Below are positions 8,665 to 63,047 of a stretch of DNA of 64,000 nt, in pieces (the stretch's first letter is position 1; every line of letters starts with the position of its first letter). A program made the translations under genes and the position numbers. Source of the DNA: Syntrophobacterales bacterium. Lineage in GTDB: Bacteria > Desulfobacterota > Syntrophobacteria > BM002. Under the pieces are notes generated by a model. The model worked only from the letters and a program-made list of their open reading frames with translations. It had not been told where the DNA came from and ran no database searches. Location of the stretch: NCBI GenBank assembly GCA_050124835.1, contig JASFEM010000002.1:794-64793 (forward strand). The letters run 5' to 3'.

Positions 8665-9822
8665 ATGAGATTTGACCAGCCCCGCGCTACCCTGGTCTTG
8701 GAAGACGGCACAGTATTCTATGGGCAGGCCTTCGCTGGCGAGGGCGAAACCCTCGGCGAAGTAGTCTTCAACACCGCCATGACGGGTTATCAGGAGGTGC
8801 TAACCGATCCATCTTATAAAGGTCAGATAGTGACCATGACCTATCCTCTCATCGGCAATTACGGGATTAACGACGAGGATATGGAATCACTAGCCATTCA
8901 GGTGGAGGGCTTTATTGTCCGTGAGTACCTACCTTATCCCAGCAACTGGCGAAGTGAGAGAACGCTTAAAGCCTTCTTGGAGGAAGCCAATATTATCGGC
9001 GTTGAGGGTATCGATACGCGCGCGCTCACCAAACACATTCGTACTGCCGGTGCCATGAAGGGCATCATTTCCACCGGGGATAAAGCACCCGAAGCGTTGC
9101 TCAAGAAGGTGCAGGCCTATCCTGGCCTGGTGGGTCGTGACCTGGTTGGAAAAGTCACAACCTCTTCTCCTTACTTATGGGATGGAAAACAAAAGCCGCT
9201 GCCGTGGAAACCTGGGATGACTGGCGCCGATGTCTGGCCTGATTCGAGCCATCCCTACAAGGTCGTGGCTTTCGACTATGGCATCAAGTACAACATCCTC
9301 CGCAATATGATCAGCCGCGGCTGTCATATTATTGTGCTTCCTGCCCAGGCGCAGCCAGCAGACATCCTGGCACTGGAACCAGATGGCCTCTTTCTCTCCA
9401 ACGGCCCGGGCGATCCGGCGGCGGTAACCTATGCCATTGACGCGGTTCGCTCTTTACTTCCCGAACTCCCGATCTTCGGCATCTGCCTCGGCCACCAACT
9501 CCTGGGGCTGGCCATGGGAGGCACCACCTTTAAGCTCAAGTTCGGCCACCGCGGTGGCAACCAGCCAGTCAAGGATCTTCTCACAGGCAAGGTTGAGATT
9601 ACTTCCCAAAACCACGGTTTCTGCGTTGATATTAAGTCACTTAAAGATAAGGATGTGGAACTCACCCATATTAATTTGAATGACCAGACCCTTGAAGGTA
9701 TGCGGCACAGGACGTTACCCATTTACTCGGTTCAATACCATCCGGAAGCCTCTCCCGGCCCCCACGATGCCAGTTACCTTTTTGATGACTTCCTCACCCT
9801 TATGCAGAGAAAGAGTTGGTAA
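8665..9822 (+). CDS. carA: Carbamoyl-phosphate synthase small (glutamine amidotransferase) subunit
   Basis: MRFDQPRATLVLEDGTVFYGQAFA..., a GATase domain with GICLGHQ. Start chosen at the internal ATG 8665. Confidence 0.9.
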   Translation: MRFDQPRATLVLEDGTVFYGQAFAGEGETLGEVVFNTAMTGYQEVLTDPSYKGQIVTMTYPLIGNYGINDEDMESLAIQVEGFIVREYLPYPSNWRSERTLKAFLEEANIIGVEGIDTRALTKHIRTAGAMKGIISTGDKAPEALLKKVQAYPGLVGRDLVGKVTTSSPYLWDGKQKPLPWKPGMTGADVWPDSSHPYKVVAFDYGIKYNILRNMISRGCHIIVLPAQAQPADILALEPDGLFLSNGPGDPAAVTYAIDAVRSLLPELPIFGICLGHQLLGLAMGGTTFKLKFGHRGGNQPVKDLLTGKVEITSQNHGFCVDIKSLKDKDVELTHINLNDQTLEGMRHRTLPIYSVQYHPEASPGPHDASYLFDDFLTLMQRKSW

Positions 9823-9909
9823 TGTGCAGCAATCCTGGCAGCGGAAACGCGGAGATTAAAGTGGCTGGCCTTATTCTTCAAAACAAACAACTCCAATTCA
9901 ACCCAATCC

Positions 9910-12900
9910 ATGCCTAAGCGAACAGACATAAAGAAAATCCTAATAATCGGTTCGGGTCCTATTATCATCAGTCAAGCATGTGAATTTGACTATTCCGGCA
10001 CCCAAGCCTGTAAGGCCCTGCGGGAGGAGGGTTTCGAGATTGTTCTTATCAACAGTAATCCCGCCACCATCATGACCGACCCAGAGATGGCTCACCGGAC
10101 CTATGTTGAACCCATCACCCCAGAATGCGTTGCCAAAGTTATCGAAAGAGAAAGGCCCCAGGCGCTGCTACCAACGTTGGGAGGCCAGACAGCCCTGAAC
10201 GTTGCGGTGGCAGTGGGTGAGATGGGAGTTCTGGATAGCTGTGGGGTGGAAGTCATTGGTGCCTCCCTGCCGGTGATCAAGAAAGGGGAGGATCGCGAGC
10301 TTTTCCGGAACGCCATGGAAAAGATAGGTCTAAGGGTGCCTGCCAGTAGGATTGCGCGATCTATGGCAGAGGTTCGTCAAGCGGGTGAAGAGATCGGCTT
10401 TCCTCTCATCATTCGCCCATCCTTCACACTGGGAGGCACTGGTGGCGGGGTCGTTTACAACCGAGAAGATTTGGAAAATATGGCCCGGGCGGGTTTGGAC
10501 GCCAGTATGATCGGCACAATCATGCTGGAAGAATCGGTCTTGGGGTGGAAGGAATTTGAATTGGAGGTTATGAGGGACCACATGGACAATGTGGTCATCA
10601 TCTGTTCCATCGAGAATTTTGACCCTATGGGTGTCCACACGGGTGACAGTATTACAGTAGCACCGGCCCAGACCCTCACCGACCGCGAATACCAGGCCAT
10701 GCGGGATGCGTCAATCGCCGTGATCCGAGAGATTGGCGTGGAGACGGGGGGCTCAAACATTCAGTTCGCCATCAACCCGGAAGACGGTGAAATGGTTGTC
10801 ATTGAAATGAACCCCCGGGTTTCACGCTCCTCCGCGCTTGCCTCCAAGGCCACCGGCTTCCCCATCGCCAAAATAGCCGCCAAACTGGCCGTTGGTTATA
10901 GCCTCGACGAGATTGCCAACGATATCACCCGAGAGACGCGAGCCTCTTTCGAACCCACCATTGACTATTGCGTCGTAAAAATTCCTCGCTGGACCTTCGA
11001 GAAATTTTCTCGCACGCCTGATTACCTCACCACAACCATGAAATCGGTGGGTGAGACCATGGCCATCGGGCGTACGTTCAAGGAAGCTTTACAAAAGGCG
11101 GTGCGCTCCCTGGAAATAGGTCGCTATTCCTTGGACAGTGTTTTGACTCCCGAGTCTCATGAAAAACAAGAATATTTAAGTCTCATCCGTCAAAAGCTGC
11201 GTGAGCCAAACTCGGAGCGGCTTTTTTACCTGAGCGCTGCAATGAAGGCGGGCATCGAGCTGGAAGAAATCTACCAACTCACCAAGATTGACCCCTGGTT
11301 CCTTTACAATATCAAGGATGTTTTGGACTTTGAAACGTACTTGACGCAACAGCCCTTCTCCGAAGATCTCTTGCGACTGTCGAAAACTTATGGCTTTTCC
11401 GATCGCCGCCTGGCGGAACTCAGCGGCACTGATCAGGACACCATCCGCCAACGCCGGCTGCAGACTGGTATCATTCCGGTCTACAAGCTGGTGGATACTT
11501 GCGCTGCGGAGTTCGAAGCGTATACACCCTATTATTACTCCACCTATGAATCGGAGGATGAATCACAACCGGCAGATGTCCGCAAAGTGATGATCCTTGG
11601 CGGAGGTCCCAACCGAATCGGCCAGGGTATTGAATTTGACTACTGCTGTGTCCATGCCTCCTTTGCCCTGCGTGAAGAGGGGGTGCAGTCCATCATGGTC
11701 AACTCCAATCCGGAGACTGTGAGCACCGACTATGATACCTCCGATAAACTTTACTTTGAGCCCCTCACCTTGGAAGACGTTCTCCACATTATCCAGCGCG
11801 AATCACCGGACGGTCTAATTGTTCAGTTTGGTGGCCAGACCCCGTTGAATCTTGCCGTACCTCTGGCCCAGGCTGGAGCGCCAATTATCGGCACCACCCC
11901 AGACAGCATCGACCAGGCTGAAGATCGAGAACGGTTCCAAGCCCTTCTCAAGAAACTTGGCCTGCGGCAGCCAAGAAATGCAATTGCAAGTAGCGCTTCG
12001 GAAGCCCTGGAAGCGGCTGCTCAAATTGGCTATCCTGTCCTGGTTCGGCCCTCTTACGTCCTGGGCGGTCGCGCCATGGAAATTGTTTACAGCCAAGAGC
12101 ATCTGAAGGCCTACGTTCACGAGGCGGTCCATGTTTCTCCAGGCCATCCAATCTTGGTGGACCAATTTCTCCAGGACGCCATCGAGATCGATGTGGACGC
12201 CATTTCCGACGGCAAGACCACGGTAATTGGCGGTATCATGGAGCACATCGAGGAGGCAGGAATCCATTCCGGTGACAGCGCCTGCGTACTTCCTCCCATC
12301 AGCATCTCCGACGAACTCATTCAGGAAATTAAGTCCCAGACCAGGGCGTTGGCAGAGGAACTCAGGGTGGTGGGGTTGATGAATATCCAGTACGCTGTCA
12401 AAGACAACATGCTCTATGTTCTCGAGGTAAACCCGCGGGCCTCCCGCACCGCACCTTTTGTCAGTAAGGCGATCGGCGTGCCCCTCGCCAAACTAGCTAC
12501 CAAGATCATGTTGGGAAAGACCTTGGCTGAACTCGGCTTTACTCGTGAGGTGGAGCCGGCTCATCTGGCTGTTAAAGAGTCGGTATTCCCTTTCATACGG
12601 TTCCCCGATGTTGACATCCTCCTCGGCCCTGAAATGAAATCCACCGGTGAGGTCATGGGAATTGATAAGACCTTTGGCATGGCCTTCGCCAAAGCCCAAT
12701 TGGCGGCAGGTTACTCCCTGCCGTTGGAAGGAAACGTATTTGTCAGCGTCCGCGACCAGGACAAGCCGGCCATCTTGCCAGTGGCTCGTGAATTCGCTCA
12801 AATCGGCTTCGGTATTTTTGCCACTCGTGGCACCTCGGCTTTCTTGTCAGAGCATGGTGTTCGAAACCGAATGGTAGCCAAACTGAAGGAGGGACGTCCT

Positions 12901-13145: not shown

Positions 13146-13300
13146 GGATTGGAGATTGCAGATTTTAGATTGCGGATTGCAGATTGCGGATTGAAGGATT
13201 GGGGAATTAAAGAACGAGGGAATAGGATAGGATTAGGCAGAAATGCTACTTTAATCCCTGAATTCAGATATTTTAGACACTTTAGACATCTTAGACATTT
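13146..13300. repeat. Degenerate heptanucleotide tandem repeat array (GATTGCA/GATTGCG units, then TTAGACA units)
   Basis: agattgc agatttt agattgc ggattgc agattgc ggattga ... ; then tttagacac tttagacat cttagacat. Confidence 0.8.
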
Positions 13301-13314
13301 ACTAGGATCTCATC

Positions 13315-14800: not shown

Positions 14801-15814
14801 ATGGTAATGCCAAACAAGAAAAGTCTCCGCCGGGGTTCAGCTAAGATCATCAACGAAGCAAAGGATGTACTCCGAATCGAAGCGGAGGGCATATTTAATC
14901 TCATTGACCGAGTGGGACCTGAATTTGCCGAGGCAGTTCACTGGATTTACGAATCTCGCGGACGGGTAATCGTCACTGGCATTGGCAAGTCTGGAATAGT
15001 CGGCCGCAAGATCGTTGCCACCCTTAACAGCACTGGTACCAAATCACTGTTCCTGCATCCAGTGGAGGCCATGCACGGTGATCTCGGCATGGTCGGTTCT
15101 GACGACATTATCCTGCTCCTATCCAGTAGCGGTGAAACCGATGAGTTGAGAGCGATTCTCCCCACCTTGAAGGGCTTAGGCACCGGAATCATCTGCTTCA
15201 CCGGCAATCCCGACTCAACCCTGGGCCGCAGCAGTGATCTGACCATCTACGCCGGAGTGGAACGTGAGGCTTGCCCTTTAGGCCTGGCTCCCACTGCCAG
15301 CACCACTGCCATGCTGGCTTTGGGAGATGCTCTGGGGGTGGCGCTCATCAACAGGCGCAAATTTCGGCCCGAGGATTTTCGCCGCTGCCATCCAGGTGGT
15401 GCTTTGGGAGAGCGACTTCAGGTGCCCATCGAAACCATCATGCGTACTGGCTCCAATATTCCGCAGGTCTGGAACAACACCTTGGTGGCAGAGGCTCTCA
15501 AAGAGATGGATGCCAAGGGATTAGGAGCGACTTTGGTGACAAGAGACACCGCTCAATTGGAAGGCATAGTCACTGATGGCGACCTCCGCCGCGGATTATG
15601 CAAGTATGACCAACTACTAGAAAAGCCTGTGACCTCAATCATGACGCCAAACCCCAAAACCGTCTCGGTAAAGGGTTCGGTGGCAAACGCCTTAGAAATC
15701 ATGGAACAATACCAGATCACGGTATTGCCTGTTACCGGTGGGCAGGGCGAACTGTTGGGAATTATCCACCTCCACGACCTTCTCGGAAAAGGACGCATTA
15801 GGTTTACCCTGTGA
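14801..15814 (+). CDS. kdsD: Arabinose-5-phosphate isomerase (KpsF/GutQ family; SIS + tandem CBS)
   Basis: VIVTGIGKSG SIS motif and C-terminal CBS pair. Start set at ATG 14801; the ORF-track start at 14561 overlaps purF. Confidence 0.85.
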   Translation: MVMPNKKSLRRGSAKIINEAKDVLRIEAEGIFNLIDRVGPEFAEAVHWIYESRGRVIVTGIGKSGIVGRKIVATLNSTGTKSLFLHPVEAMHGDLGMVGSDDIILLLSSSGETDELRAILPTLKGLGTGIICFTGNPDSTLGRSSDLTIYAGVEREACPLGLAPTASTTAMLALGDALGVALINRRKFRPEDFRRCHPGGALGERLQVPIETIMRTGSNIPQVWNNTLVAEALKEMDAKGLGATLVTRDTAQLEGIVTDGDLRRGLCKYDQLLEKPVTSIMTPNPKTVSVKGSVANALEIMEQYQITVLPVTGGQGELLGIIHLHDLLGKGRIRFTL

Positions 15815-15816
15815 GG

Positions 15817-15988
15817 AAATTCGAAATCCGAAGCACGAAGCACGAAACAAATCCAAAAATTACGGAATTAGGGAATTGAAGAATTGAGAAATTAAAAGAT
15901 TAGGTGTCATTCTTTTTCCAATACCTGAATTCCTAAATCCGAAATTCCTGAATTTTTTGTATTTCGATATCCGGATTTCGGATTTTAA
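15817..15988. repeat. Heptamer-family repeat array (GAAATCC / GGAATT units)
   Basis: gaaattcgaaatccgaagcacgaagcacgaaac...ggaattagggaattgaagaattgag...ccgaaattcctgaatttt...ccggatttcggatttt. Shares the 18-mer cgaaatccgaagcacgaa with 50466-50483. Confidence 0.8.
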
Positions 15989-16048
15989 CGACCTCTAAGG
16001 TTTTAGGCGCTCGACAGTAAGACCAAAAATCCTATCAGGATTTGATCA

Positions 16049-16987: not shown

Positions 16988-17241
16988 AGTACTGCAAAGA
17001 TGAGACGGTATTGGTATTCTCTAATCCAATAGCCAGCCGAGTTTTATAAACGATGGATGCCCGTGGTCAGTTGCCGACGCCGAGGTATGTCTCCCCTTTT
17101 CAGACCGGCGGATTGGCCCGGTCGCTTGAAAATCTCTGCTTATCGCGTTAGCATGAGTTTTTATGCGGGTCACATCTGGATACCATAACTCATGCAAGCA
17201 TATACAACTGACTACTGAAAACGGACCACGGACATCACTTA

Positions 17242-20261: not shown

Positions 20262-20651
20262 CTAACTTACTGGTGCAGCGGATTCGCCCAGGTAGGTTGC
20301 GCAGGCATCCTGAGACTCCCAAGCGGTTACCCTGCTGACCCTTACCCGGTCATTATTTAGCTTATCCTGAAGCCGCTCGAAGATAAAACGGGCAATATTT
20401 TCTGATGACGGATTATGGCTTTTGAAAAAGGGCAATTCGTTGAGATAACAGTGATCAATTTCTGACATCACATCGCGGGTGGCTGCCTTAACTTCTGCAA
20501 AATCCAAAACTACACCACTATCGTCCAGCCCGGTGCCGCTTACAACCACCTCCACTTTCCAGTTGTGCCCATGAAGGGCTTCGCACTTGCCGCGAAAGTT
20601 ACGAAGATTATGTGCAGCAGAAAAATCTGTTACTATTTTCAGTTCGTACAT
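20262..20651 (-). CDS. queD: 6-carboxy-5,6,7,8-tetrahydropterin synthase
   Basis: 129 aa with the CEALHGHNW motif of the QueD/PTPS family. Confidence 0.85.
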   Translation of the reverse strand: MYELKIVTDFSAAHNLRNFRGKCEALHGHNWKVEVVVSGTGLDDSGVVLDFAEVKAATRDVMSEIDHCYLNELPFFKSHNPSSENIARFIFERLQDKLNNDRVRVSRVTAWESQDACATYLGESAAPVS

Positions 20652-20945
20652 CTACCCCTCCTCCGGCTCCCCGGTGTAGGGTTTGCCACACTCCTTGCAG
20701 AGACCATCCGGTCCGATCACTCCTATACAGATACCGTCGCTGCAAAGCTTCCTGCTGGCAAAATCAATGGAATCCAGATCGTCTTCCGATGCCCCCAGCT
20801 CATGCTCCTCTGAGTCTGCCAAACCACCGGCCAACTCTTCACCGCACCAGCAGCAGTACCGGCTCCCTTCGGGCAGCGAGCGCTGGCAAGCCGGACATGT
20901 TTTTTCTCCGAGCTCCTCTCCGCAGTGGGGGCATTCCAAGGTCAT
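20652..20945 (-). CDS. Cys-rich zinc-ribbon protein, translationally coupled to queD
   Basis: Motifs CPHCG...CPACQ...CCWCG and CSDGIC...CKECG. Its stop abuts the queD start. Confidence 0.6.
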   Translation of the reverse strand: MTLECPHCGEELGEKTCPACQRSLPEGSRYCCWCGEELAGGLADSEEHELGASEDDLDSIDFASRKLCSDGICIGVIGPDGLCKECGKPYTGEPEEG

Positions 20946-21069: not shown

Positions 21070-21123
21070 GTTACTGGTCATTGGTCAATTGTCCGTTGGC
21101 TTTTATCCGTTGTCCGTTGTGTA
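21070..21123. repeat. Heptamer-family repeat (GGTCATT / TGTCCGT units)
   Basis: ggtcatt ggtcaat tgtccgt tggcttt tatccgt tgtccgt. Confidence 0.6.
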
Positions 21124-21633: not shown

Positions 21634-21918
21634 ATGACGTTAACGAAAGCGCATATTGTTGAGAATCTGTTTGCCAAGAATATCTTCACTAAAAGCGAGT
21701 GCGCAGAGATTGTCGAAACCCTCTTTGAGCTCATCAAGAAGACGTTGGAGGACGGCGAAGACGTCCTCATCAGCGGTTTCGGCAAATTCAGTGTGAAGGA
21801 GAAGAATCAAAGGCGCGGTCGTAACCCCCAAACCGGCGACCCTATCATGCTCTCACCGCGCAAGGTAGTCACGTTTAAGTGTTCTGGCGTGCTACGATCA
21901 AAAATCAACAGCCGCTAA
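21634..21918 (+). CDS. Integration host factor / HU-family DNA-binding protein
   Basis: GFGKF...RRGRNPQTG arm motif; 94 aa. Confidence 0.85.
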   Translation: MTLTKAHIVENLFAKNIFTKSECAEIVETLFELIKKTLEDGEDVLISGFGKFSVKEKNQRRGRNPQTGDPIMLSPRKVVTFKCSGVLRSKINSR

Positions 21919-24084: not shown

Positions 24085-24145
24085 AGCCTAGGGTCATTAC
24101 GCTTCGCTGTCATTGGGTCATCAGGTCATTAGGTCGTTAGGATAA
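24085..24145. repeat. Heptamer-family repeat (GGTCATT units)
   Basis: gggtcatt acgcttc gctgtcatt gggtcat caggtcatt aggtcgtt. Confidence 0.6.
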
Positions 24146-26619: not shown

Positions 26620-27069
26620 CTTTGGTCCTCCCTTAAATCAATCCTCAGGTCACAAACCGATAACGCTATTCAGTTCCCTCTGGTTGAGACCAAATGGAAT
26701 AGCATGGAGAAAACTCCGTCACCGACCAGTGTCCCTCGTCTCTGGAATCTCTTGCTGACTATTAGATGGTAAGTGTTCTAGAAAGAGAGATTTTTTAACA
26801 ATTACTGACTGCAGGATCCATTAGTGAACTGAGCAATTAATATGCCATAGCCAATGCTGCCTGTCAACGAATGTCTAGCTGGAGAGGGAAGAGCTATGCA
26901 GTGGGCAACGAGCCCTCTGGAAGCGGTTTATCCGACCATAACCCGTCTTTCAATTTAGTACCGCATCATACCGAAAGAGTTACTCAAAATGCCCTACTTT
27001 GGTACTTATGTTCCAACGCTTGCTTGCCTGGCATAGGAAAACGGAGTAGACTGAATATCTGAAACAAAT

Positions 27070-27205
27070 TTAAGAATTCAGGAATTTTGGGGATTGAGGA
27101 ATTCAACTAACAGATTCCTTTCGCAGAGGCGATTCCAGTATAGAATCCTAATTTTTTAATTCCCTAACTTGTTTCGTGCTCAGGACTTCCGATTTTAAAT
27201 CTCCT
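27070..27205. repeat. Heptamer-family repeat (GGAATT / GGGATTGAG units)
   Basis: aagaattcaggaattttggggattgaggaattcaac...atagaatcctaattttttaattccctaac...cgattttaaatctcc. Confidence 0.7.
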
Positions 27206-28093: not shown

Positions 28094-28155
28094 GAATTGG
28101 AGAATTCGGGGATTGAGTTTCTCGATGTGTCATCTCTAAATTTCTAAATTTGTGA
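28094..28155. repeat. Heptamer-family repeat
   Basis: taagaattggagaattcggggattgagtttctc...tctaaatttctaaatttgtg. Confidence 0.6.
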
Positions 28156-31049: not shown

Positions 31050-31074
31050 ATCCCCAGTAGCTTTTAAGCACAGG

Positions 31075-31140
31075 ATACATTTCTGATTTCGCATTTCTCA
31101 TTGAGTATTTCTCATCACATACTGAGGAATAAGCGTCATA
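31075..31140. repeat. Heptamer-family repeat (CATTTCT units)
   Basis: catttct gatttcg catttct cattgag tatttct catcaca. Confidence 0.6.
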
Positions 31141-31183
31141 AACCCATGACAAACGAAAAATGTGAAATGACCCATAATGAGGA

Positions 31184-33990: not shown

Positions 33991-34089
33991 GAGGAAAAAC
34001 TAGGCACCAATTACTATTCCTTAAAAATAGTGTTTTGGTCATTTGAAACTGGGGACCCGCCCGAAGGGTGGGGAGTCCGTAGGACCAAT

Positions 34090-34150
34090 TTTGAAATTCG
34101 GATTTGTTTCGGATTTCGGATTTCGGATTTCTGATTTAGGATTTTATAGC
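34090..34150. repeat. Heptamer-family repeat (GGATTTC units)
   Basis: gaaattc ggatttg tttc ggatttc ggatttc ggatttc tgattta ggatttt. Confidence 0.8.
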
Positions 34151-44595: not shown

Positions 44596-44599
44596 AGAA

Positions 44600-44727
44600 A
44601 TCCCTAACCTTGCCCCTAGTGCTAGTGCCTAGTCCTTGGTCCCTAGTGCTTAGTCCCTAGTCCTTAGTCCCTAGTCCTTAGTCCCTAGTGCTTAGTCCCT
44701 AGTGCTTAGTCCCTAGTGCCTAGTGCT
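44600..44727. repeat. Heptamer tandem repeat array (TAGTCCC / TAGTGCT units, ~17 units)
   Basis: cctagtgc tagtgcc tagtcct tggtccc tagtgct tagtccc tagtcct tagtccc ... Confidence 0.9.
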
Positions 44728-44889
44728 TTTCGACCTGCGCCTATTCTAGCCAGGGGGGAGCGGAAAAACAACCAGAGGCAGCAAAACCATCTGCAAGCTT
44801 GCCCGGACAACACTTTAAGACAAACAAACTCGGTGAGGCGGTGATTTCTCAGCTCTCCGGAGTGCGCAAGCCGCCAATGATGGCAGGTG

Positions 44890-46260
44890 CTATAGTTTGT
44901 GAGGATCGAGAACGGAAGTGATGGATGAGGGATTCTCCATTTGGTGACCCAGAAACTCCACCTGATTTCGGACACCACTCTTTTCTTGAATTTGTCGGGT
45001 GATGTTATCTACAGCGTGAATTACGGTAGCGTGGGAGCGATTGAACGCTTGACCGATTGACTCTAGAGTCTCATCGGTATATTTACGGCAGAAATACATG
45101 CCGAGATTACGCGGGTAGACCACCCCTTTCTTGCGCGAATTAGACTTTAGGGCTTCAACAGACACTTTGAAATACTGGCAGATAATCTGTTGAACCCGTT
45201 CTATACTGATAGCCTCGCGGCTGTCACAGACCGACTCCAGAACCTCGTGCGCCAATCTGAGATCTATGGGTTTGTCGAGGAGCGACGACTTGGCGACGAT
45301 ACCTATTATGGAGCTTTCCAACTGCCGTACATCCCTGGTTATGTGAGTAGCCAAAAGTTCTGCCACCTCCGCCGGCAGTTGGACTCCCTCGTTGGCCGCT
45401 TTTTTCTCCAGAATTTTGAGCCTGGTCTGGAAATCGGGCGGTTCAATGTGGGTAACCATCCCAGCGGTTAACCGTGATTGCAATTTGCTTTCTAGCTTGG
45501 GAATGTCTCTAGGAAAGTGGGTTCCGGTAAATATGACTCGCTTACCGTACCGACCTAAGGCGTCAAGGGTGTAGGACAACTCCGACTGTGTCTTCTCCTT
45601 GCCGCTGAGAAATTGTACCTCCTCCAAAAGAAGTACATCGCACTTGCTGCGGTACTTATCTTTGAATCCATCCATGCGCCGCTGTTTGATGGCAACAACC
45701 ATCTCGTTGGTAAACTCCTCAGCTGTCAGGTAGTGAACCCGGGTGCTGTGATTCAGGTTGAGGATGTGATTACCGATGGCATGAGAAAGGTGACTTTTCC
45801 CGAGACCAGTATCAGCCAACAAATATAGGGAGCTGCACGGGCTGTGGTCACCGTTGGCAATGGCAAAGGCTGCAGAGAAAGCAAAACTATTGCCCGTGCC
45901 GACAACGAATTGGTCGAAGGTGAACCGCCGATTGAGACGGTACAGATGTCCATTGTCATCCACAGGCAAAGGAAGCTCTAATTGGCTGGAATTTTTCGGC
46001 TCTTTTTTAGACCTTCGAGGCGGGGTCGCCAAACGGAGCTGGAGGTCCCGAGGGGTACCACCATGCCGTTCCCAACTTTTCCTTATATCAGCTAGATAGT
46101 TCTCCCGAACCCAGTTGAGAAAGAATCGGTTCGGGCATGCCAGGGAAATCTCACCCTCCTTCGAGGTTACCAGCTCCAGAGGTTCGATCCACATCTTAAA
46201 ACAATTGTTGGAGACCTTACTTTGCAGATCTTCCTTAGTATGTTTCCAGATTTCCTCCAT
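44890..46260 (-). CDS. dnaA: Chromosomal replication initiator protein DnaA
   Basis: AAA+ Walker A GLGKSHL, sensor motifs, and C-terminal DNA-binding domain VYPRNLGMYFCRKYTDETLESIGQAFNRSHATVIHA. Confidence 0.95.
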   Translation of the reverse strand: MEEIWKHTKEDLQSKVSNNCFKMWIEPLELVTSKEGEISLACPNRFFLNWVRENYLADIRKSWERHGGTPRDLQLRLATPPRRSKKEPKNSSQLELPLPVDDNGHLYRLNRRFTFDQFVVGTGNSFAFSAAFAIANGDHSPCSSLYLLADTGLGKSHLSHAIGNHILNLNHSTRVHYLTAEEFTNEMVVAIKQRRMDGFKDKYRSKCDVLLLEEVQFLSGKEKTQSELSYTLDALGRYGKRVIFTGTHFPRDIPKLESKLQSRLTAGMVTHIEPPDFQTRLKILEKKAANEGVQLPAEVAELLATHITRDVRQLESSIIGIVAKSSLLDKPIDLRLAHEVLESVCDSREAISIERVQQIICQYFKVSVEALKSNSRKKGVVYPRNLGMYFCRKYTDETLESIGQAFNRSHATVIHAVDNITRQIQEKSGVRNQVEFLGHQMENPSSITSVLDPHKL

Positions 46261-47084
46261 GAAAATCCTCTAAGACGGGCTATTGCGGCGGATCCGTATT
46301 TGGCTTAAGTCACATGTTGCATAGAAGCTTGGCTGATAGTCAAGAGGAATAATAACAGATGCGAAAATAGTAACCCATGCGCGCTTAAACCGCAATTTGT
46401 TTCTGGTCGGTTATACCTCTGTTTGCCGTATTAGATCCCGCCCGGATGGTTTCTCTTGGAGCGGGATACCAGAGAAATGCTCAGGCTTACTTGCAGTTAA
46501 ATCTCTGGAGCTATGTAAATATCAGTCTTGGTTGATTGCCGACAGACGGTCACATCATTTCCGCGCTATCCTGGCCAAGGCAATGGAGACGCAACACCAC
46601 ATGAAGCCGTTTTGTAATTCATCCGGATTCTGATGTCAAACTCCGTATTACAGTATTTTAGCGTAATAGGGCCTGAGTTGTTAACAACGAAATTTCACCC
46701 AGATTTCCAAACCTTGTCAAAATATACATTGATAAGGGTGCGACAACAGGCATTTTTTAACATTATCTCAATATACAACTGAAATTCAAGGGCTTACGTT
46801 GGCACTTTTTTAGCCTTTCCCGTTATCAACATTCAAGATCTTCTCATTCCTCCCATTTCCTCCTTTTTTTCGATTTGGCACTTTTTTATCACATGGGTTG
46901 AACTTGGTCGTTGAATTCAAAATCAGATTTTGCCAATATACTTAAGACATTTCATTCCACCATCCTCATTGACGAAATATTAACAGCATTGGCGGTCAGC
47001 CTAAAGACTGCCTGTCTTATCAAGGCATTATTGCATGAACCATCCTCTGACGCCAGGCCGCCTTGCAAGAACAGGAGAGCAACC
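46261..47084. other. Putative oriC: AT-rich non-coding region upstream of dnaA with DnaA-box-like 9-mers and direct repeats
   Basis: Candidate boxes: ttgataagg (46729), ttatctcaa (46763), ttatcaaca (46823), ttatcacat (46886), ttatcaagg (47014). A 14-bp direct repeat TTGGCACTTTTTTA occurs at 46799 and 46875. Confidence 0.6.
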
Positions 47085-48017
47085 ATGGATAAACTGACTG
47101 TGGCACTGCTCAGTGGCGGGCGCTCCGCCGAGCGCGAAGTGTCGCTAAAAAGCGGCGAGCAGGTCTACAAAGCCTTGGACAAGGAGAAGTACAGGATACT
47201 CCGCTACGACCCCAGAGACGATCTGGCTCGGCTAATGGAAGACGGGCCAAATATTGATGTAGCTTTAATCATACTCCACGGCCGCTACGGAGAAGACGGG
47301 ACCATCCAAGGGCTTCTTGAGTTGTTGGATATCCCCTTCCACGGTAGCGGTGTCCTGGGCAGTGCAGTAGGCATAAACAAAATCCTATCCAAACGGCTCT
47401 ACGAGCACGCCGGTCTGCCGGTATCGCCCTACCTGGTGTTGGATCGCACTGACCCCGAAGCCCAAGTCAAAATTCAGGATGGACTAGGCCTTCCGGTAGT
47501 GGTCAAGCCTGAGCACGAAGGTTCAAGCATTGGCCTCAGTATTGTTCGGGATACCAGCGAGCTTCGGCCAGCTTTGGAACTGGCCGGCCAGTACGACCGG
47601 CTTGTTCTTGTAGAGAAATTCATCGCTGGCATCGAGATCACTGGAGCTGTGCTCGGCAACCTGAATCCTGAGCCTCTTCCCCTGGTGGAGATTATTCCTG
47701 GTGACCAATATGGTTTCTTCAACTATGAGGCCAAGTACAAGCCAGGAGCCACAGAGGAAATCTGTCCGGCACGAATCAGCGCATCCCTGACCCGGAAGGC
47801 CCAGGAGTATGCGGTGCGAGCACATCAGGCTTTGAAATGCCGAGGCTACAGCCGTACAGATATGATAGTCAGCGATAATGAGGTATATATTTTAGAGACT
47901 AATACCATACCAGGGATGACCGCAACGAGTCTATACCCCCAAGCTGCGGCAGCTGCCGGAATAAGTTTCTCCGAGCTACTTGATCGACTAATAGAGCTCG
48001 CTTTGGAGAAAGATTAA
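47085..48017 (+). CDS. ddl: D-alanine--D-alanine ligase
   Basis: MDKLTVALLSGGRSAEREVSLKSG... and an ATP-grasp domain. Start ATG 47085 has an AGGAGAG RBS; the ORF-track start at 46911 is an upstream over-extension. Confidence 0.9.
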   Translation: MDKLTVALLSGGRSAEREVSLKSGEQVYKALDKEKYRILRYDPRDDLARLMEDGPNIDVALIILHGRYGEDGTIQGLLELLDIPFHGSGVLGSAVGINKILSKRLYEHAGLPVSPYLVLDRTDPEAQVKIQDGLGLPVVVKPEHEGSSIGLSIVRDTSELRPALELAGQYDRLVLVEKFIAGIEITGAVLGNLNPEPLPLVEIIPGDQYGFFNYEAKYKPGATEEICPARISASLTRKAQEYAVRAHQALKCRGYSRTDMIVSDNEVYILETNTIPGMTATSLYPQAAAAAGISFSELLDRLIELALEKD

Positions 48018-48187
48018 CCAAAGGAATACGGAAGCAAAATCTAAACTCCGATATGGAATGTGGGATAGATCATTAAGCAAACAGATCAAGCAGACCTCTC
48101 ACATCCCACATCTCATATCACACATCTCAAATCCATCGGCCACCCACTTAGAGTGGGTGTAGCTCTCAGACACCCAAACTCATCCAT

Positions 48188-49247: not shown

Positions 49248-49315
49248 TCAAATCCGAAATCCGAATATCGAAATACTAAACAAATTCAAATTTCCAAAAT
49301 CCAAATGACCAAAAC
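49248..49315. repeat. Heptamer-family repeat in the hypD-hypE spacer
   Basis: caaatcc gaaatcc gaatatc gaaatac taaacaaattcaaatttccaaaatccaaatgacc. Confidence 0.8.
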
Positions 49316-50427: not shown

Positions 50428-50454
50428 ATGAGAAAGTCTCCCTCCTTCTCAGCT

Positions 50455-50630
50455 AAAGCTGAAAATCCGAAATCCGAAGCACGAAATTCGAAACAATTTT
50501 CAAATTTTCTAAATCCAAAATTCAAAACGAATCGGAATTATCAGGCGCTTAAGAATTGGGTTTTGGTAATTTGAATTTTGAATTTCGGATTTGTTTCGTA
50601 TTTCGATATTCGATATTCGAATTTATAGCT
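50455..50630. repeat. Heptamer-family repeat array in the hypF-hypD spacer
   Basis: gaaaatccgaaatccgaagcacgaaattcgaaac...ttgaattttgaatttcggatttgtttcgtatttcgatattcgatattcgaattt. Confidence 0.85.
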
Positions 50631-50674
50631 ATCGCAAACTGGCTAATAAGATCACGACCCGCCCACCACAGTGG

Positions 50675-53615: not shown

Positions 53616-53680
53616 TTATCATTACTCATTTGGCATTTGGCATTTGTTTCAGCATTTTTCGCTATGCTCTATGCGCTATG
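53616..53680. repeat. Heptamer-family repeat in the hypA-hypB spacer
   Basis: tcattta tcattac tcatttg gcatttg gcatttg tttcagc atttttcg ctatgct ctatgcg. Confidence 0.7.
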
Positions 53681-53681
53681 C

Positions 53682-54606: not shown

Positions 54607-54869
54607 TCTGAATACGCCTATAGAGTGAGCTAAAATGAACTAAAATGTCTAAAGTGCCTAAAATTATAAACCTTCGAAAGAATTTTGCCCACCCCGTATC
54701 ACCAACCACTGGGCAGATTTAAGATTCCATATTTTCCATTTCTTCGCACTCGCTGGCTCCGCTCAGTCCCGCAAGCGAGTTACCAGTTCCGCATTCCGCA
54801 TTAGTAACTGAAACTCAAGCTTTGAATAGCAAGTCACCCAAGTGCCTAATGATAAATGGGAAATGCGCA

Positions 54870-54915
54870 AAGACAAATGACCTAGTGCCTAGTCCCTAGT
54901 GCTTAGTGCCTGGTT
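54870..54915. repeat. TAGTCCC/TAGTGCT heptamer repeat, short copy
   Basis: cctagtgc ctagtccc tagtgct tagtgcc. Same units as the array at 44600-44727. Confidence 0.7.
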
Positions 54916-54919
54916 CTCC

Positions 54920-58444: not shown

Positions 58445-58528
58445 ATTCGAATCTTAATTCATTAATCCCCTAATCCTGCAATCCCTTAATCCCAAATCTG
58501 CAATCTTAAATCTTAAATCTCAAATCCC
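58445..58528. repeat. Heptamer-family repeat (reverse-orientation AATCC / AATCTGC units)
   Basis: taatccc ctaatcc tgcaatccc ttaatccc aaatctgc aatctta aatctta aatctca aatccc. Confidence 0.85.
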
Positions 58529-62101: not shown

Positions 62102-62392
62102 CTAGTCTTTCTCTCTTGGTGGCAAGTGCACCGGGATTCCTGCGGCGACCTTGGCCGCCTCCATTATGACTTCCGAAAGGATGGGATGAGGGTGGGTAGT
62201 CACCAGGAGGTCTTCGAGTGTGGCGCCCATCTCCAGAGCCAGAGTGGACTCGGCAATCATTTCAGATGCCTGCGGTCCTACCATCCCCACCCCCAGAATC
62301 AGACCGGATTCAGGCTCAGAGAGGATTTTCACTAGGCGATCAGCCGCCCCAGAGTCCGCGCTCGCCATAAAGCTTCCCCAACCAACGGCCAA
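62102..62392 (-). pseudogene. Remnant of a dihydrolipoamide-dehydrogenase-type gene: only the C-terminal dimerisation domain is present
   Basis: GVGMVGPQASEMIAE...LEMGATLEDL...THPHPILSEVIMEAA matches the Pyr_redox_dim domain. No FAD/NAD domains lie upstream; a DsrC-like gene begins 4 bp away. Confidence 0.5.
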
Positions 62393-62965: not shown

Positions 62966-63047
62966 GGATTTCAGATTTGAGATTGCAGATCGCGGATTGC
63001 AGATTTAGGGATTGAGGGATTTTGGATTTGGGATTGCAAATTGCCGA
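62966..63047. repeat. Heptamer-family repeat (GATTGCA / GGATTTG units)
   Basis: cagattt gagattg cagatcg cggattg cagattt agggattg agggattt tggattt gggattg caaattg ccgatta. Confidence 0.85.

Follow-up and report, generated by a model that had tools for sequence, protein, structure and literature searches.

Why should a single 7-nt period recur in spacer after spacer of an otherwise ordinary chromosome? The question is raised by a stretch of 64,000 nt from contig JASFEM010000002.1 (positions 794 to 64,793; assembly GCA_050124835.1, Syntrophobacterales bacterium), referred to below as the window, whose intergenic spacers are occupied by tandem arrays of degenerate heptanucleotides. An earlier note, made from the sequence alone, had taken these arrays for one family with a GATT/AATC core. 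They were found here to be in large excess, to be confined to spacers and to exist in two linked forms, solitary direct arrays and mirror-image foldback elements. They are a known class of repeat, that of the short tandemly repeated repetitive elements (STRRs) of cyanobacteria, in a new host lineage and variant. It is on balance probable that slippage-grown solitary arrays and dispersed foldbacks are both constrained at the level of the transcript, likely as an intercistronic or 3'-untranslated-region (3'-UTR) RNA element.

Intergenic heptamer repeats (STRRs, heptanucleotide long simple sequence repeats and TAACTGA repeats) have been known for more than 30 years without a function. The window itself holds glnA, carAB, purF, purB, ppsA, an RND efflux pair, a futalosine-pathway menaquinone gene, a glcD-like gene, CCG Fe-S genes, dnaA (44890-46260, - strand), ddl, hypABFDE, moeA genes, a DsrC-like gene and one tRNA. 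Among species-representative genomes the best PurF matches are only 66-67% identical and belong to Thermodesulfobacteriota/deltaproteobacterial metagenome-assembled genomes, and the host is therefore placed in an uncultured Desulfobacterota lineage. Comparisons were made with related contigs from other metagenome samples (including the JGI records WOR8 and SMTZ1) and with GTDB genomes; individual loci are cited by L numbers.

Excess and confinement of the arrays

Arrays were detected with Tandem Repeats Finder (TRF) and by a lag-p self-similarity scan with a threshold of at least 15 matches in 21. Over the whole window the lag scan returned 17 arrays at lag 7, 12 at lag 14 and nine at lag 21, with 0-8 arrays at each remaining lag within 2-22; about 25 distinct arrays with period 7 or its multiples 14 and 21 were returned by TRF, matching the coordinates given earlier. 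The 37 spacers (8,440 nt) contained 17 period-7 arrays, compared with 0.1 +/- 0.3 (maximum 2) in 200 dinucleotide-preserving shuffles of these spacers, and six period-8 arrays compared with 0.1. No period-7 array was present within the 54,989 nt of coding sequence in the window. The repeats are thus pervasive beyond what composition predicts and strictly non-coding, as had been claimed, and their units do run in both orientations. Being built of head-to-tail units beyond the composition expectation (shuffles, TRF), the arrays are long simple sequence repeats (LSSRs) of the 5-11-nt type.

The period of 7 nt is conserved and the unit sequence is highly variable between arrays. The count of different heptamers with exact repetition came to 81 when the window was taken together with the related HypD loci, and the proposed single family with a GATT/AATC core is not upheld, since CATTTCT, CTATGCT, CACATCC and CCTAGTG lack this core; what they share is the period, not the unit. 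Seventeen spacers had been listed before (under the words 'at least 18'), of which 13 do hold period-7 arrays; the other four hold 8-10-mers instead of heptamers, with period 8 at 24085-24145, degenerate octamers at 27070-27205 and 28094-28155 and period 9-10 at 54610-54660. Arrays at 17204-17234, 48091-48134 and 54787-54802 had been overlooked. An array usually comprises 3-8 units, towards or below the lower end of the 5-20 reported, and only that at 44614-44728 is longer, with ~14 heptamers.

At gathering thresholds the tRNA was the sole Rfam match in the window. A known RNA family was also sought with a permissive Rfam scan of 48-55 kb and was rejected: this gave only sub-threshold microRNA-precursor matches, which reflect a long hairpin.

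Mirror-image foldback elements

Solitary direct arrays of the window include those at 13146, 34107, 40737, 44614, 53616, 54872, 58462 and 62966. In several spacers an array is followed by its own reverse complement, so that the spacer from end to end forms a long imperfect palindrome. Among 226 arrays in the related loci, 56 were found to share their spacer with a reverse-complement partner, compared with three in a reversed-only control, and a quarter to a third of the arrays are mirrored, which the earlier note had missed. The RNA of 15812-15995 has a minimum free energy of -49.2 kcal/mol (z -3.45; 0 of 200 shuffles equally stable), the sense RNA of 50445-50645 one of -50.6 kcal/mol (z -3.83), and 31060-31183 folds with z -2.69; the solitary array at 44614-44728 gave no strong fold (z -1.4).

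Iterated nhmmer searches brought together 39 sites in 23 loci, mostly non-orthologous, as a single foldback family (family A), which in the window has sites at 15817, 27058, 34022, 49250 (a solo arm) and 50463. The elements at 15816-15985 and 50452-50635 align in both arms. The long stretch that had been seen to be shared between them is an exact 18-mer, CGAAATCCGAAGCACGAA, of which none is expected by chance; it lies at 15822 and 50468, and not at 15824 and 50466 as given previously. In an alignment of 14 full family-A copies the left arm reads (T)AAATCCG AAATCCG AAGCACG AAATTCG AAACAAA TCCGAAA ... AATGACCAAAAC and is followed by a variable loop; the right-arm consensus is GTTTTGGTCATT ... 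ATTTGTTT ... CGGATTT CGGATTT(A), and AAGCAC, AAACAAAT and AATGACCAAAAC serve as landmarks. Every 7 nt the left arm has an invariant AA and the right arm an invariant TT. Over nine heptads the arms can be aligned gap-free, so that their unit number is fixed, unlike that of a free microsatellite. The inverted arms measure ~66 nt and the whole element 130-230 nt, with no coding capacity, and the two arms of a pair are always 0-250 nt apart (~2 Mb of loci). In C-type arms the motif AATCACA AATCACA is present.

All family-A copies fold as a single hairpin, at -36 to -66 kcal/mol. In the consensus structure 87.6% of the cells are paired, compared with 80.5% after shuffling, and 37 cells carry double-sided changes, compared with 19 (in both cases 0 of 500 shuffles as high). 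CG-to-GC swaps occur every seven columns (12, 19, 26 and 33), mirroring the CCG/CGG and CAC/GTG lineages, and sliding of the register lowers pairing to 18-63%. Some conserved heptads are non-complementary across the arms (GAAGCAC opposite GATATTC), which implies that the arms are inherited as such and not selected for perfect pairing.

Another mirrored form, family B, is built as (GGATTGN)n (GGAATTNN)n - loop - (NNAATTCC)n; it is found at 13146-13265, downstream of hypD in L083, L084, L089 and L090, and nested in the family-A element at 15855-15957.

Two other repeats were observed in the same surroundings. A 46-nt GC-rich hairpin module (AAACTGGGGACCCGCCCGMAGGGTGGGGAGTCCGKAGGACCAATTT) is located inside family-A arms at three loci, namely 34046-34092, the hypF-hypD allele of L082 and the ddl/hypE spacer of L164. 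Small dispersed repeat (SDR) elements were reportedly described by Elhai in 2008 as embedded in cyanobacterial heptamer arrays, and the module is reminiscent of these, as if it were a tiny dispersed element targeting heptamer arrays. A further dispersed intergenic repeat, CCTTCGACTTKGCTCAGGRYSGTGAGYC, in tandem and inverted copies, is situated in or beside heptamer arms (upstream of hypD in L083 and L084, downstream of it in L087) and appears to be another small intergenic element family in this clade.

Dispersal of family A

When the window is compared with L101, L089, L087/88, L020 and L053 (Desulfatibacillum sp.), family-A stretches of 36-68 nt show 94-100% identity. These near-identities are at non-orthologous positions, and the HypD or PurF proteins of the loci are only 59-84% identical to those of the window. 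Spread by copying, as proposed in the earlier note, is thereby supported for part of the arrays. The recurrence of TAGTCCC/TAGTGCT units at two sites had also been seen correctly: those of 44614-44728 return at 54881-54909 with 93-96% identity. The fixed arms, landmarks, covariation and non-orthologous recurrence of family A are the signature of what is probably a dispersed non-autonomous palindromic element, of the type of REPINs (inverted doublets of repetitive extragenic palindromic, REP, sequences) or miniature inverted-repeat transposable elements (MITEs).

The family-A element is also present in two contigs of a viral collection. In one of them (L167, 3400-3460) a GGGACCA/GGGAATA heptamer array directly adjoins a family-A foldback, and the association of solitary arrays with foldbacks thus extends to contigs classed as viral. 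In L009 (Ca. Desulfacyla euxinica) two carB-like 3' ends were observed (9740-9960 and 20340-20735), each followed by the same ordered suite of arrays (GATTGAT..., CCTGCATC..., GAATAAC...); the suite is duplicated along with the gene end or copied to both.

Occurrence in the clade and turnover between strains

Period-7 arrays were present in ~70 of 80 HypD-related metagenome loci (HypD identity 55-99%), at 1-15 per 10 kb, and periods 6, 8 and 9 were usually far below period 7. Among the PurF loci of GTDB genomes, arrays were found in eight of the nine closest (5.6 per 10 kb in L009) and in about one third of the other 71. In all ten closest PurF loci (L001-L010) carB adjoins purF, and the spacer between them has clear heptamer arrays in seven and weaker traces in two more. 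Its units are GATTGNN in the window, L005 and L009, CTGAACC or GAACCGT in L001 and L007, GGTCAGT in L004 and CCAGTAT in L008. At this spacer the presence of an array is maintained and the unit sequence turns over.

Variation in copy number between strains, a check that accompanied the earlier claims, was observed at 44614. In two contigs with identical DnaA this array is 28 nt (L162) and 14 nt (L163) shorter than in the window; these contigs are otherwise 99.74% and 99.85% identical to the window and have no other indel. L164 and L165 have another arrangement at this position, with flanks that are 99.1-99.85% identical across strains, and L083 differs from L084 by one GGATTGC unit. Such whole-unit length polymorphism, seen here in short-read assemblies (14 and 28 nt at 44614, one unit between L083 and L084), is shared with LSSRs of 5-11 nt.

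Three whole spacers are replaced between strains whose flanking genes are 98.4-99.6% identical, namely hypD-hypF and hypB-hypA in L082 and ddl/hypE in L164. The 99%-identical strain L082 has a diverged family-A allele with the GC-hairpin insertion between hypF and hypD, and mirrored CCTAGTG-type arrays between hypA and hypB instead of those of the window; L164 has a different spacer of 526 nt between ddl and hypE. Other array-bearing spacers are 100% identical between strains. Beside the replaced ddl/hypE spacer the 3' end of ddl also differs between the window (47990-48020) and the otherwise 99%-identical L164, so that replacement can extend into a gene end.

These data bear on the simplest alternative, in which the arrays are a pure mutational by-product: slippage microsatellites that arise de novo in each spacer, heptanucleotide units being those most prone to slip, with no copying between loci and no function. 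As summarised in PMC4679880, Mrazek 2007 found that, of the genomes with many repeats of 5-11 nt, most have more heptanucleotide LSSRs than any other class, and proposed that this is due to a property of DNA polymerase. Such an origin would suit the conservation of period rather than sequence among 81 unit types, the length differences of 14, 28 and 7 nt between near-identical strains and the restriction of arrays to places where frameshifts are harmless. Slippage alone is nevertheless insufficient, because the foldbacks have fixed nine-heptad arms with conserved order and landmarks, their arms covary, and their copies turn up in 23 loci, in different genera and at sites that are not orthologous. 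Nor does it account for the quarter to third of arrays that are mirrored or for the replacement of whole spacers, which goes beyond length change, and it predicts none of the stop-codon, strand and spacer-class biases reported in the next section. As an account of all the arrays it is unlikely, and for the foldback families it is contradicted.

Placement and strand

Placement was analysed in 840 kb of non-redundant HypD loci together with the window. Of 318 arrays, 277 were outside open reading frames (ORFs), which cover 82% of the DNA. An array was present in 42% of co-directional spacers (2.5 arrays per kb), 17% of convergent spacers (1.0 per kb) and 8% of divergent, promoter-containing spacers (0.3 per kb), a density ~8-fold below that of co-directional spacers. 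Since the arrays are mainly in co-directional spacers, they would be co-transcribed with the flanking genes. The array started within 10 nt of the upstream stop codon in 60 of 228 cases, compared with 16.5 expected (p ~1e-18); adjacency to the start codon was not significant (23 compared with 16.5 expected), and the median distance from the array to the next start was 121 nt. The statement that arrays abut start or stop codons is therefore retained for stop codons only.

The arrays have a sense strand that is rich in purines and poor in C (A 0.32, G 0.275, T 0.22, C 0.19). Per kb of sense strand, AGG occurs 30.8 times and CCT 6.6 times, GGA 25.0 and TCC 6.3, GAGG 10.8 and CCTC 1.4, and GG 82.9 and CC 25.8; in non-array spacer sequence the ratio of motif to complement is ~1:1. 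After removal of redundant arrays, 104 were purine-rich and 41 pyrimidine-rich (p 1.7e-7). The sense RNA was more stable than the antisense RNA in 87 array-bearing spacers and less so in 44 (mean difference -4.8 kcal/mol, p 1e-6), compared with a difference of -1.2 kcal/mol (p 0.14) in array-free spacers. When the window arrays were read from printouts of their spacers, seven had GGA or AGG in the sense strand, one (62966) had the complement, three were mirrored and three had neither motif. Taken together, the spacer-class bias, stop-codon anchoring, strand asymmetry and sense-specific folding indicate that it is the transcript, not the duplex, that matters.

An alternative of this kind is that the arrays are binding tracks on the mRNA for CsrA, a cold-shock-domain protein, S1 or the anti-Shine-Dalgarno sequence of the 30S subunit (as a Shine-Dalgarno-like standby site), which would tune initiation or re-initiation at the next cistron with the copy number as an expression rheostat. 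Sense GGA, AGG, GAGG and AGGA at 4-8 fold the frequency of their complements would be expected of such tracks, as would arrays that extend from the stop codon towards the next start, the polymorphic 44614 array that ends 19 nt before a start codon, and the array at 17204-17234, which stands in for a Shine-Dalgarno sequence 8 nt before a start, as with TAACTGA repeats. CspB moreover binds heptamer repeats with one protein per heptamer (PMC4679880). A CsrA sponge or a tandem Shine-Dalgarno sequence is rejected as a general explanation: only ~1/5 of the heptads contain AGG or GGA and ~1/7 a 4-nt Shine-Dalgarno core, arrays of CATTTNN, CTATGCT, CACATCC and many others have no such motif, mirrored arrays would be base-paired and so inaccessible to single-strand binders, the next start is neither near nor significantly adjacent, and the spacing of known CsrA sites exceeds 7 nt (PMC4679880). 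We regard such tracks as an improbable explanation of the arrays in general.

Binding at the level of the DNA, by a dimeric protein that coats the 7-bp units as an operator, insulator or chromosome-organising site, is still more doubtful. A ribbon-helix-helix (RHH) protein of the omega/ParB-like kind or IHF/HU would be candidates: omega (ParB) of pSM19035 binds runs of 7-10 contiguous WATCACW heptads (7 bp) in direct or inverted orientation, each heptad taking up one dimer (PMC9499535), and paired repeat sites in Geobacter metallireducens have been proposed to bind IHF/HU (PMC2700814). The AATCACA repeats of C-type family-A arms fit WATCACW, AA or TT is invariant every 7 bp, and an HU/IHF-family gene is located at 21634-21918. 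Binding to the duplex predicts neither an orientation that tracks transcription nor stop-codon anchoring, the arrays are scarcest in the promoter-containing spacers, no RHH gene was seen beside arrays in the window, and more than 80 unit types would demand many specificities or a very relaxed reader. For reasons of spacer class and orientation the curved-DNA, nucleoid-protein and insulator functions suggested in the earlier note likewise fit poorly.

An assembly or binning artefact limited to this contig, named beforehand among the findings that would undo the case, is refuted: tandem repeats are error-prone in short-read assemblies and array length does vary between assemblies, but independent JGI, ENA and Logan assemblies from five samples (L081, L082, L162-L166) hold the same arrays with matching flanks (L081 is 99.885% identical to the window over 16,555 nt, with no indel), and GTDB genomes as well as ~70 of the 80 related contigs from metagenomes contain comparable arrays.

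Interpretation

According to the favoured reading, that of STRR-type repeats under transcript-level constraint, degenerate units of 7 nt (sometimes 8-10 nt) fill untranslated spacers in a lineage of Desulfobacterota that is uncultured and lives in sediment. Solitary direct arrays would lengthen and shorten by slipped-strand or unequal exchange, as their period, unit diversity and whole-unit length changes suggest. Family A would be a non-autonomous dispersed element of REPIN/MITE type, whose copies reach non-orthologous spacers, lie one within another and pass between strains and genera. Selection on the transcript may then shape where and how arrays persist, favouring a start at the stop codon and either a purine-rich, C-poor sense strand or a long hairpin. 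The likeliest mode would be an intercistronic or 3'-UTR RNA element in which a hairpin or C-poor tract buffers the untranslated gap, possibly as a barrier to 3'-exonucleases, by avoidance of Rho loading, or by coupling or decoupling neighbouring cistrons. The same roles have long been put forward for the cyanobacterial hupS-hupL STRR hairpins. Beyond the observed anatomy, statistics, dispersal, arm covariation, strain turnover and strand and position biases, we infer that the arrays are transcribed, that they affect the mRNA and that a mobilising enzyme exists.

Several points weigh against this reading. The statements on RNA are drawn from position and strand bias, and these biases could reflect mere tolerance, for example if C-rich arrays within operons were purged for loading Rho. 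The placement statistics were obtained with crude ORF calls (longest ORFs) and from loci centred on hyp operons. Part of the folding asymmetry is due to the additional G-U pairs that a G-rich strand can form. Exceptions to the orientation rule are 62966-63047, with a C-rich sense strand, and the C-rich CTGAACC arrays between carB and purF of L001 and L007. Promoter or intrinsic-terminator identity was tried and rejected, consensus scans being at chance level with no coincidence with the arrays. Short-read assemblies can collapse tandem repeats, which is a caveat on the copy-number differences. With regard to mobility, the flanks of 16 family-A copies contain no shared direct repeat that would mark a target-site duplication, and no clean empty site was found among them; no transposase or REP-associated tyrosine transposase (RAYT) with family-A ends was found in the ~2 Mb of loci covered, and the scanned window ORFs matched no transposase family. 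The mobility of family A is accordingly deduced from its distribution. A TA target-site duplication was considered separately and dropped: it is suggestive in three copies and inconsistent over 16, and T...A is indistinguishable from an extension of the palindrome.

A bolder extension, to which we would give only a small chance, is that the heptad arrays are the cis half of a lineage-wide post-transcriptional 'operon punctuation', the other half being a reader that steps by 7 nt and loads at the stop codon. This reader may be a cold-shock-domain, S1-like or CsrA-like protein or a scanning 30S subunit, and may cover the purine-rich track, move along it, or bind the foldback hairpin by recognition, thereby setting the expression of the downstream cistron. 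Unit number and spacer replacement would then be rapidly evolving, gene-by-gene expression settings of each strain, and the same logic would explain cyanobacterial STRRs and the TAACTGA repeats of Beggiatoaceae.

Irrespective of mechanism, an unrelated and environmentally abundant sediment lineage carries heptamer repeats at very high density, and quantitative placement rules turn their role (RNA or DNA level) and origin (mobile element or slippage) into testable hypotheses. In genomes that are otherwise 99% identical no part changes faster than the array spacers, which are therefore useful strain markers; the arrays likely also cause contig breaks and collapsed repeats in metagenome assemblies.

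Comparison with known repeat systems

The comparison with cyanobacterial STRRs made in the earlier note is apt: both comprise tandem 7-bp units, in several types per genome, dispersed over many spacers, and both can form hairpins between co-transcribed genes. In cyanobacteria the classic case of these 7-bp repeats is the hupS-hupL spacer of hydrogenase operons, where the hairpins have been proposed to make the transcript more stable or to couple translation (PMC2670836); the hyp operon spacers of the window are filled likewise. The host differs, being of Desulfobacterota type and not a heterocystous cyanobacterium, as indicated by the PurF matches and the DsrC-like, futalosine-pathway and hyp genes. 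The classical units are said to have been given by Mazel in 1990 as STRR1 CCCCAGT, STRR2 TTGGTCA and STRR3 CAACAGT. The dominant units here are instead GATTGCR, CGGATTT, CCTAGTG and CATTTNN; TTGGTCA occurs once (21080) and CCCTAGT is only similar to a canonical unit. We know of no report of a foldback family with fixed architecture, of stop-codon anchoring or of a sense purine bias for STRRs.

TAACTGA heptamer direct repeats have been described in marine Beggiatoaceae, some Cyanobacteria and Bacteroidetes, with a proposed post-transcriptional role (MacGregor 2015; PMC4679880). They resemble the arrays in being abundant in spacers, oriented relative to the genes, often mixed with other heptamers, variable by 7-nt indels between close strains and scattered in phylogeny. 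In the BOGUAY genome (orange Guaymas 'Maribeggiatoa') a single unit dominates, in 2-6 copies just before start codons (PMC4679880), whereas many units, anchoring at the upstream stop and many mirrored arrays are found here. One array of the window comes close, with its first two units, CAACTGA CTACTGA (17204-17217), each one mismatch from TAACTGA and the array 8 nt before a start; all others have different units.

The earlier note was aware of no equivalent family in deltaproteobacterial-type genomes, but one exists. The genome paper on G. metallireducens reports families of 3-5 tandem repeats of 7-9 nt, mostly as inverted pairs at variable distance (Aklujkar 2009; PMC2700814); they are multicopy (49 copies of four GGGACCG-type heptamers in one family), lie at intergenic and intercistronic sites such as proB-proA, and were read, without a test, as DNA sites for IHF/HU or a global regulator (PMC2700814). 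A deltaproteobacterial host, tandem hepta- and octanucleotides and inverted pairs between genes are common to both cases. The consensus sequences of G. metallireducens (GGACCGG, MTYCTGA, GTTGCTYN) are different, some of its copies are intragenic, and the strand, position and strain analysis given here is not reported there.

The REPIN concept is that of an inverted REP doublet forming a hairpin (PMC3116915). Family A is likewise inverted, hairpin-forming and extragenic, and in its non-coding inverted arms and multicopy non-orthologous occurrence it resembles REP doublets, BOX and Correia elements and foldback transposons; nesting and polymorphism between strains are further likenesses. It has the terminal inverted repeats, small size, lack of coding capacity and copy number (39 sites in 23 loci) of a MITE, and not the target-site duplication. 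Unlike REPs or the terminal inverted repeats of typical MITEs, its arms are internally periodic at 7 nt. Arms built of short tandem repeats are a feature of eukaryotic foldback transposons.

With the heptad operators and parS sites of omega the arrays share contiguous direct and inverted heptads. The omega sites overlap promoters beside the omega gene on a plasmid, whereas the arrays are kept out of promoter spacers, are oriented with transcription and are present by the dozen in 64 kb of chromosome. A literature search turned up no paper describing such repeats in Desulfobacterales, and we did not find a fixed-arm foldback family, stop anchoring, sense purine bias or replacement of spacers between strains described before.

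Array catalogue of the window

Table 1. Repeat arrays and foldback elements of the window, with their units, surroundings and supporting matches (HMM, hidden Markov model)
Position	Strand	Units	Location	Further features
13146-13265	+	~8 GATTGCR heptamers, then GGAATTNN octamers	carB-purF spacer, from 9 nt past carB stop	Short inverted partner AATCCCTGAATT at 13249-13264; 'family B' type; TRF 13146-13205, period 7/14/21
13272-13301	+	8-9-mer module with ~3.5 copies of TTTAGACA(C)	Upstream of purF	TRF; related modules at 54626-54664 and upstream of hypE in L083
15816-15985	+	Composite foldback; outer family-A arms AAATCCG GAAGCAC ... CGGATTT enclosing inner octamer arms AATTAGGG ... CCTGAATT	Begins 2 nt past kpsF-like stop	Inverted arms of 31, 23 and 25 nt; family-A nhmmer and arm HMM matches; aligns with 50445-50645
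17204-17234	+	CAACTGA CTACTGA AAACGGA CCACGGA	Ends 8 nt before start of M48-TPR gene, which has no obvious Shine-Dalgarno sequence	Scan; 90.6% match to L136/L140
21070-21123	unassigned	GGTCATT / TTGTCCG heptamers, including TTGGTCA	Upstream of tRNA gene	TRF 21089-21120; scan
24085-24145	-	~4 GTCATTAG octamers	Between PEP synthase stop and UPF0146 start	TRF period 8
27058-27199	unassigned	Degenerate octamer foldback GAATTCAG GAATTTTG ... AATTCCCT	Divergent ppsA/PAC2 spacer	26-nt inverted arms at 27061-27175, 73% complementary; nhmmer match at 27058
28094-28155	+	GAATTGGA-type octamers, then ~2 copies of TCTAAATT	Immediately past PAC2 stop	TRF 28135-28151
31075-31169	+	Mirrored CATTTCT heptamers and complement GAAATG	Hairpin between YkuD and creatininase genes	TRF; 24-nt inverted arms
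34022-34148	+	Solo family-A arm in T-rich orientation, closing with ~5.4 CGGATTT units		Arm HMM; TRF 34107-34144 (TTTCGGA), 90% matches; split at 34046-34092 by the 46-nt GC-rich hairpin module, found again in L082 and L164
40737-40780	+	~5 CATTTNN heptamers	Occupies spacer between MqnA-like gene and next ORF	TRF period 7/14
44614-44728	-	Largest array; ~8 copies of 14-mer CCCTAGTGCTTAGT (14 heptamers)	Downstream of dnaA; ends 19 nt upstream of glcD-like start codon	TRF score 173
48091-48134	unassigned	CACATCY heptamers	Convergent ddl/hypE spacer	TRF
49250-49315	-	Solo family-A arm	hypD-hypE spacer	Arm HMM E 1e-10; 94% identical over 68 nt to non-orthologous site in L087/L088
50452-50635	-	Full family-A foldback	hypF-hypD spacer	55-nt inverted arms
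53616-53681	-	~3 CATTTGG and ~3 CTATGCK units	Whole 66-nt hypA-hypB spacer filled	TRF
54626-54664	-	CTAAAATGN 9-10-mers	Just before DJC28-like gene start	TRF period 9/10; identical in L082
54787-54802	-	~2.3 TTCCGCA units		TRF; 16-nt inverted partner at 54855-54870
54872-54917	-	~4.4 CCTAGTG heptamers	Adjoins GAF-HD gene stop	TRF; unit family as in 44614 array
58462-58528	-	AATCCCY / AAATCTT (sense GGGATTA / AAGATTT)	Adjoins moeA stop	TRF period 7/8/14/16/22
62966-63047	-	GATTKCR / GGATTTG heptamers	Adjoins MFS gene stop	TRF period 7/14

Other observations

The 8-10-mer module (TTTAGACAC / TTTAGGCAC / TTTAGTTCA) was found at 13272-13301, at 54626-54664 and downstream of hypD in L083. It is located 20-40 nt before the starts of the unrelated genes purF, the DJC28-like gene and hypE (L083), and might be a shared 5'-UTR or promoter-proximal element.

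The 'adjacent oriC' that had been assumed near dnaA is not evident. In 44596-46910 dnaA is followed by the glcD-like gene and not by dnaN, and the 650-nt dnaA-ddl spacer contains a single DnaA-box-like site (46823). No excess or cluster of DnaA boxes was found across the window, and the cumulative GC skew does not turn near dnaA.

Two small ORFs were also observed. One at 62102-62392 (- strand; 96 aa), beside the DsrC-like gene, matches pyridine nucleotide-disulphide oxidoreductases in their C-terminal dimerisation domain only and is possibly a gene fragment or part of a split gene. The other, at 20652-20945 (- strand), was not in the list of ORFs and encodes a 97-aa Cys-rich, zinc-ribbon-like protein (MTLECPHCGEELGEKTCPACQ...); it fills much of the apparent 600-nt PTPS-tRNA spacer, and the array at 21070-21123 is thus situated in a shorter, divergent spacer.

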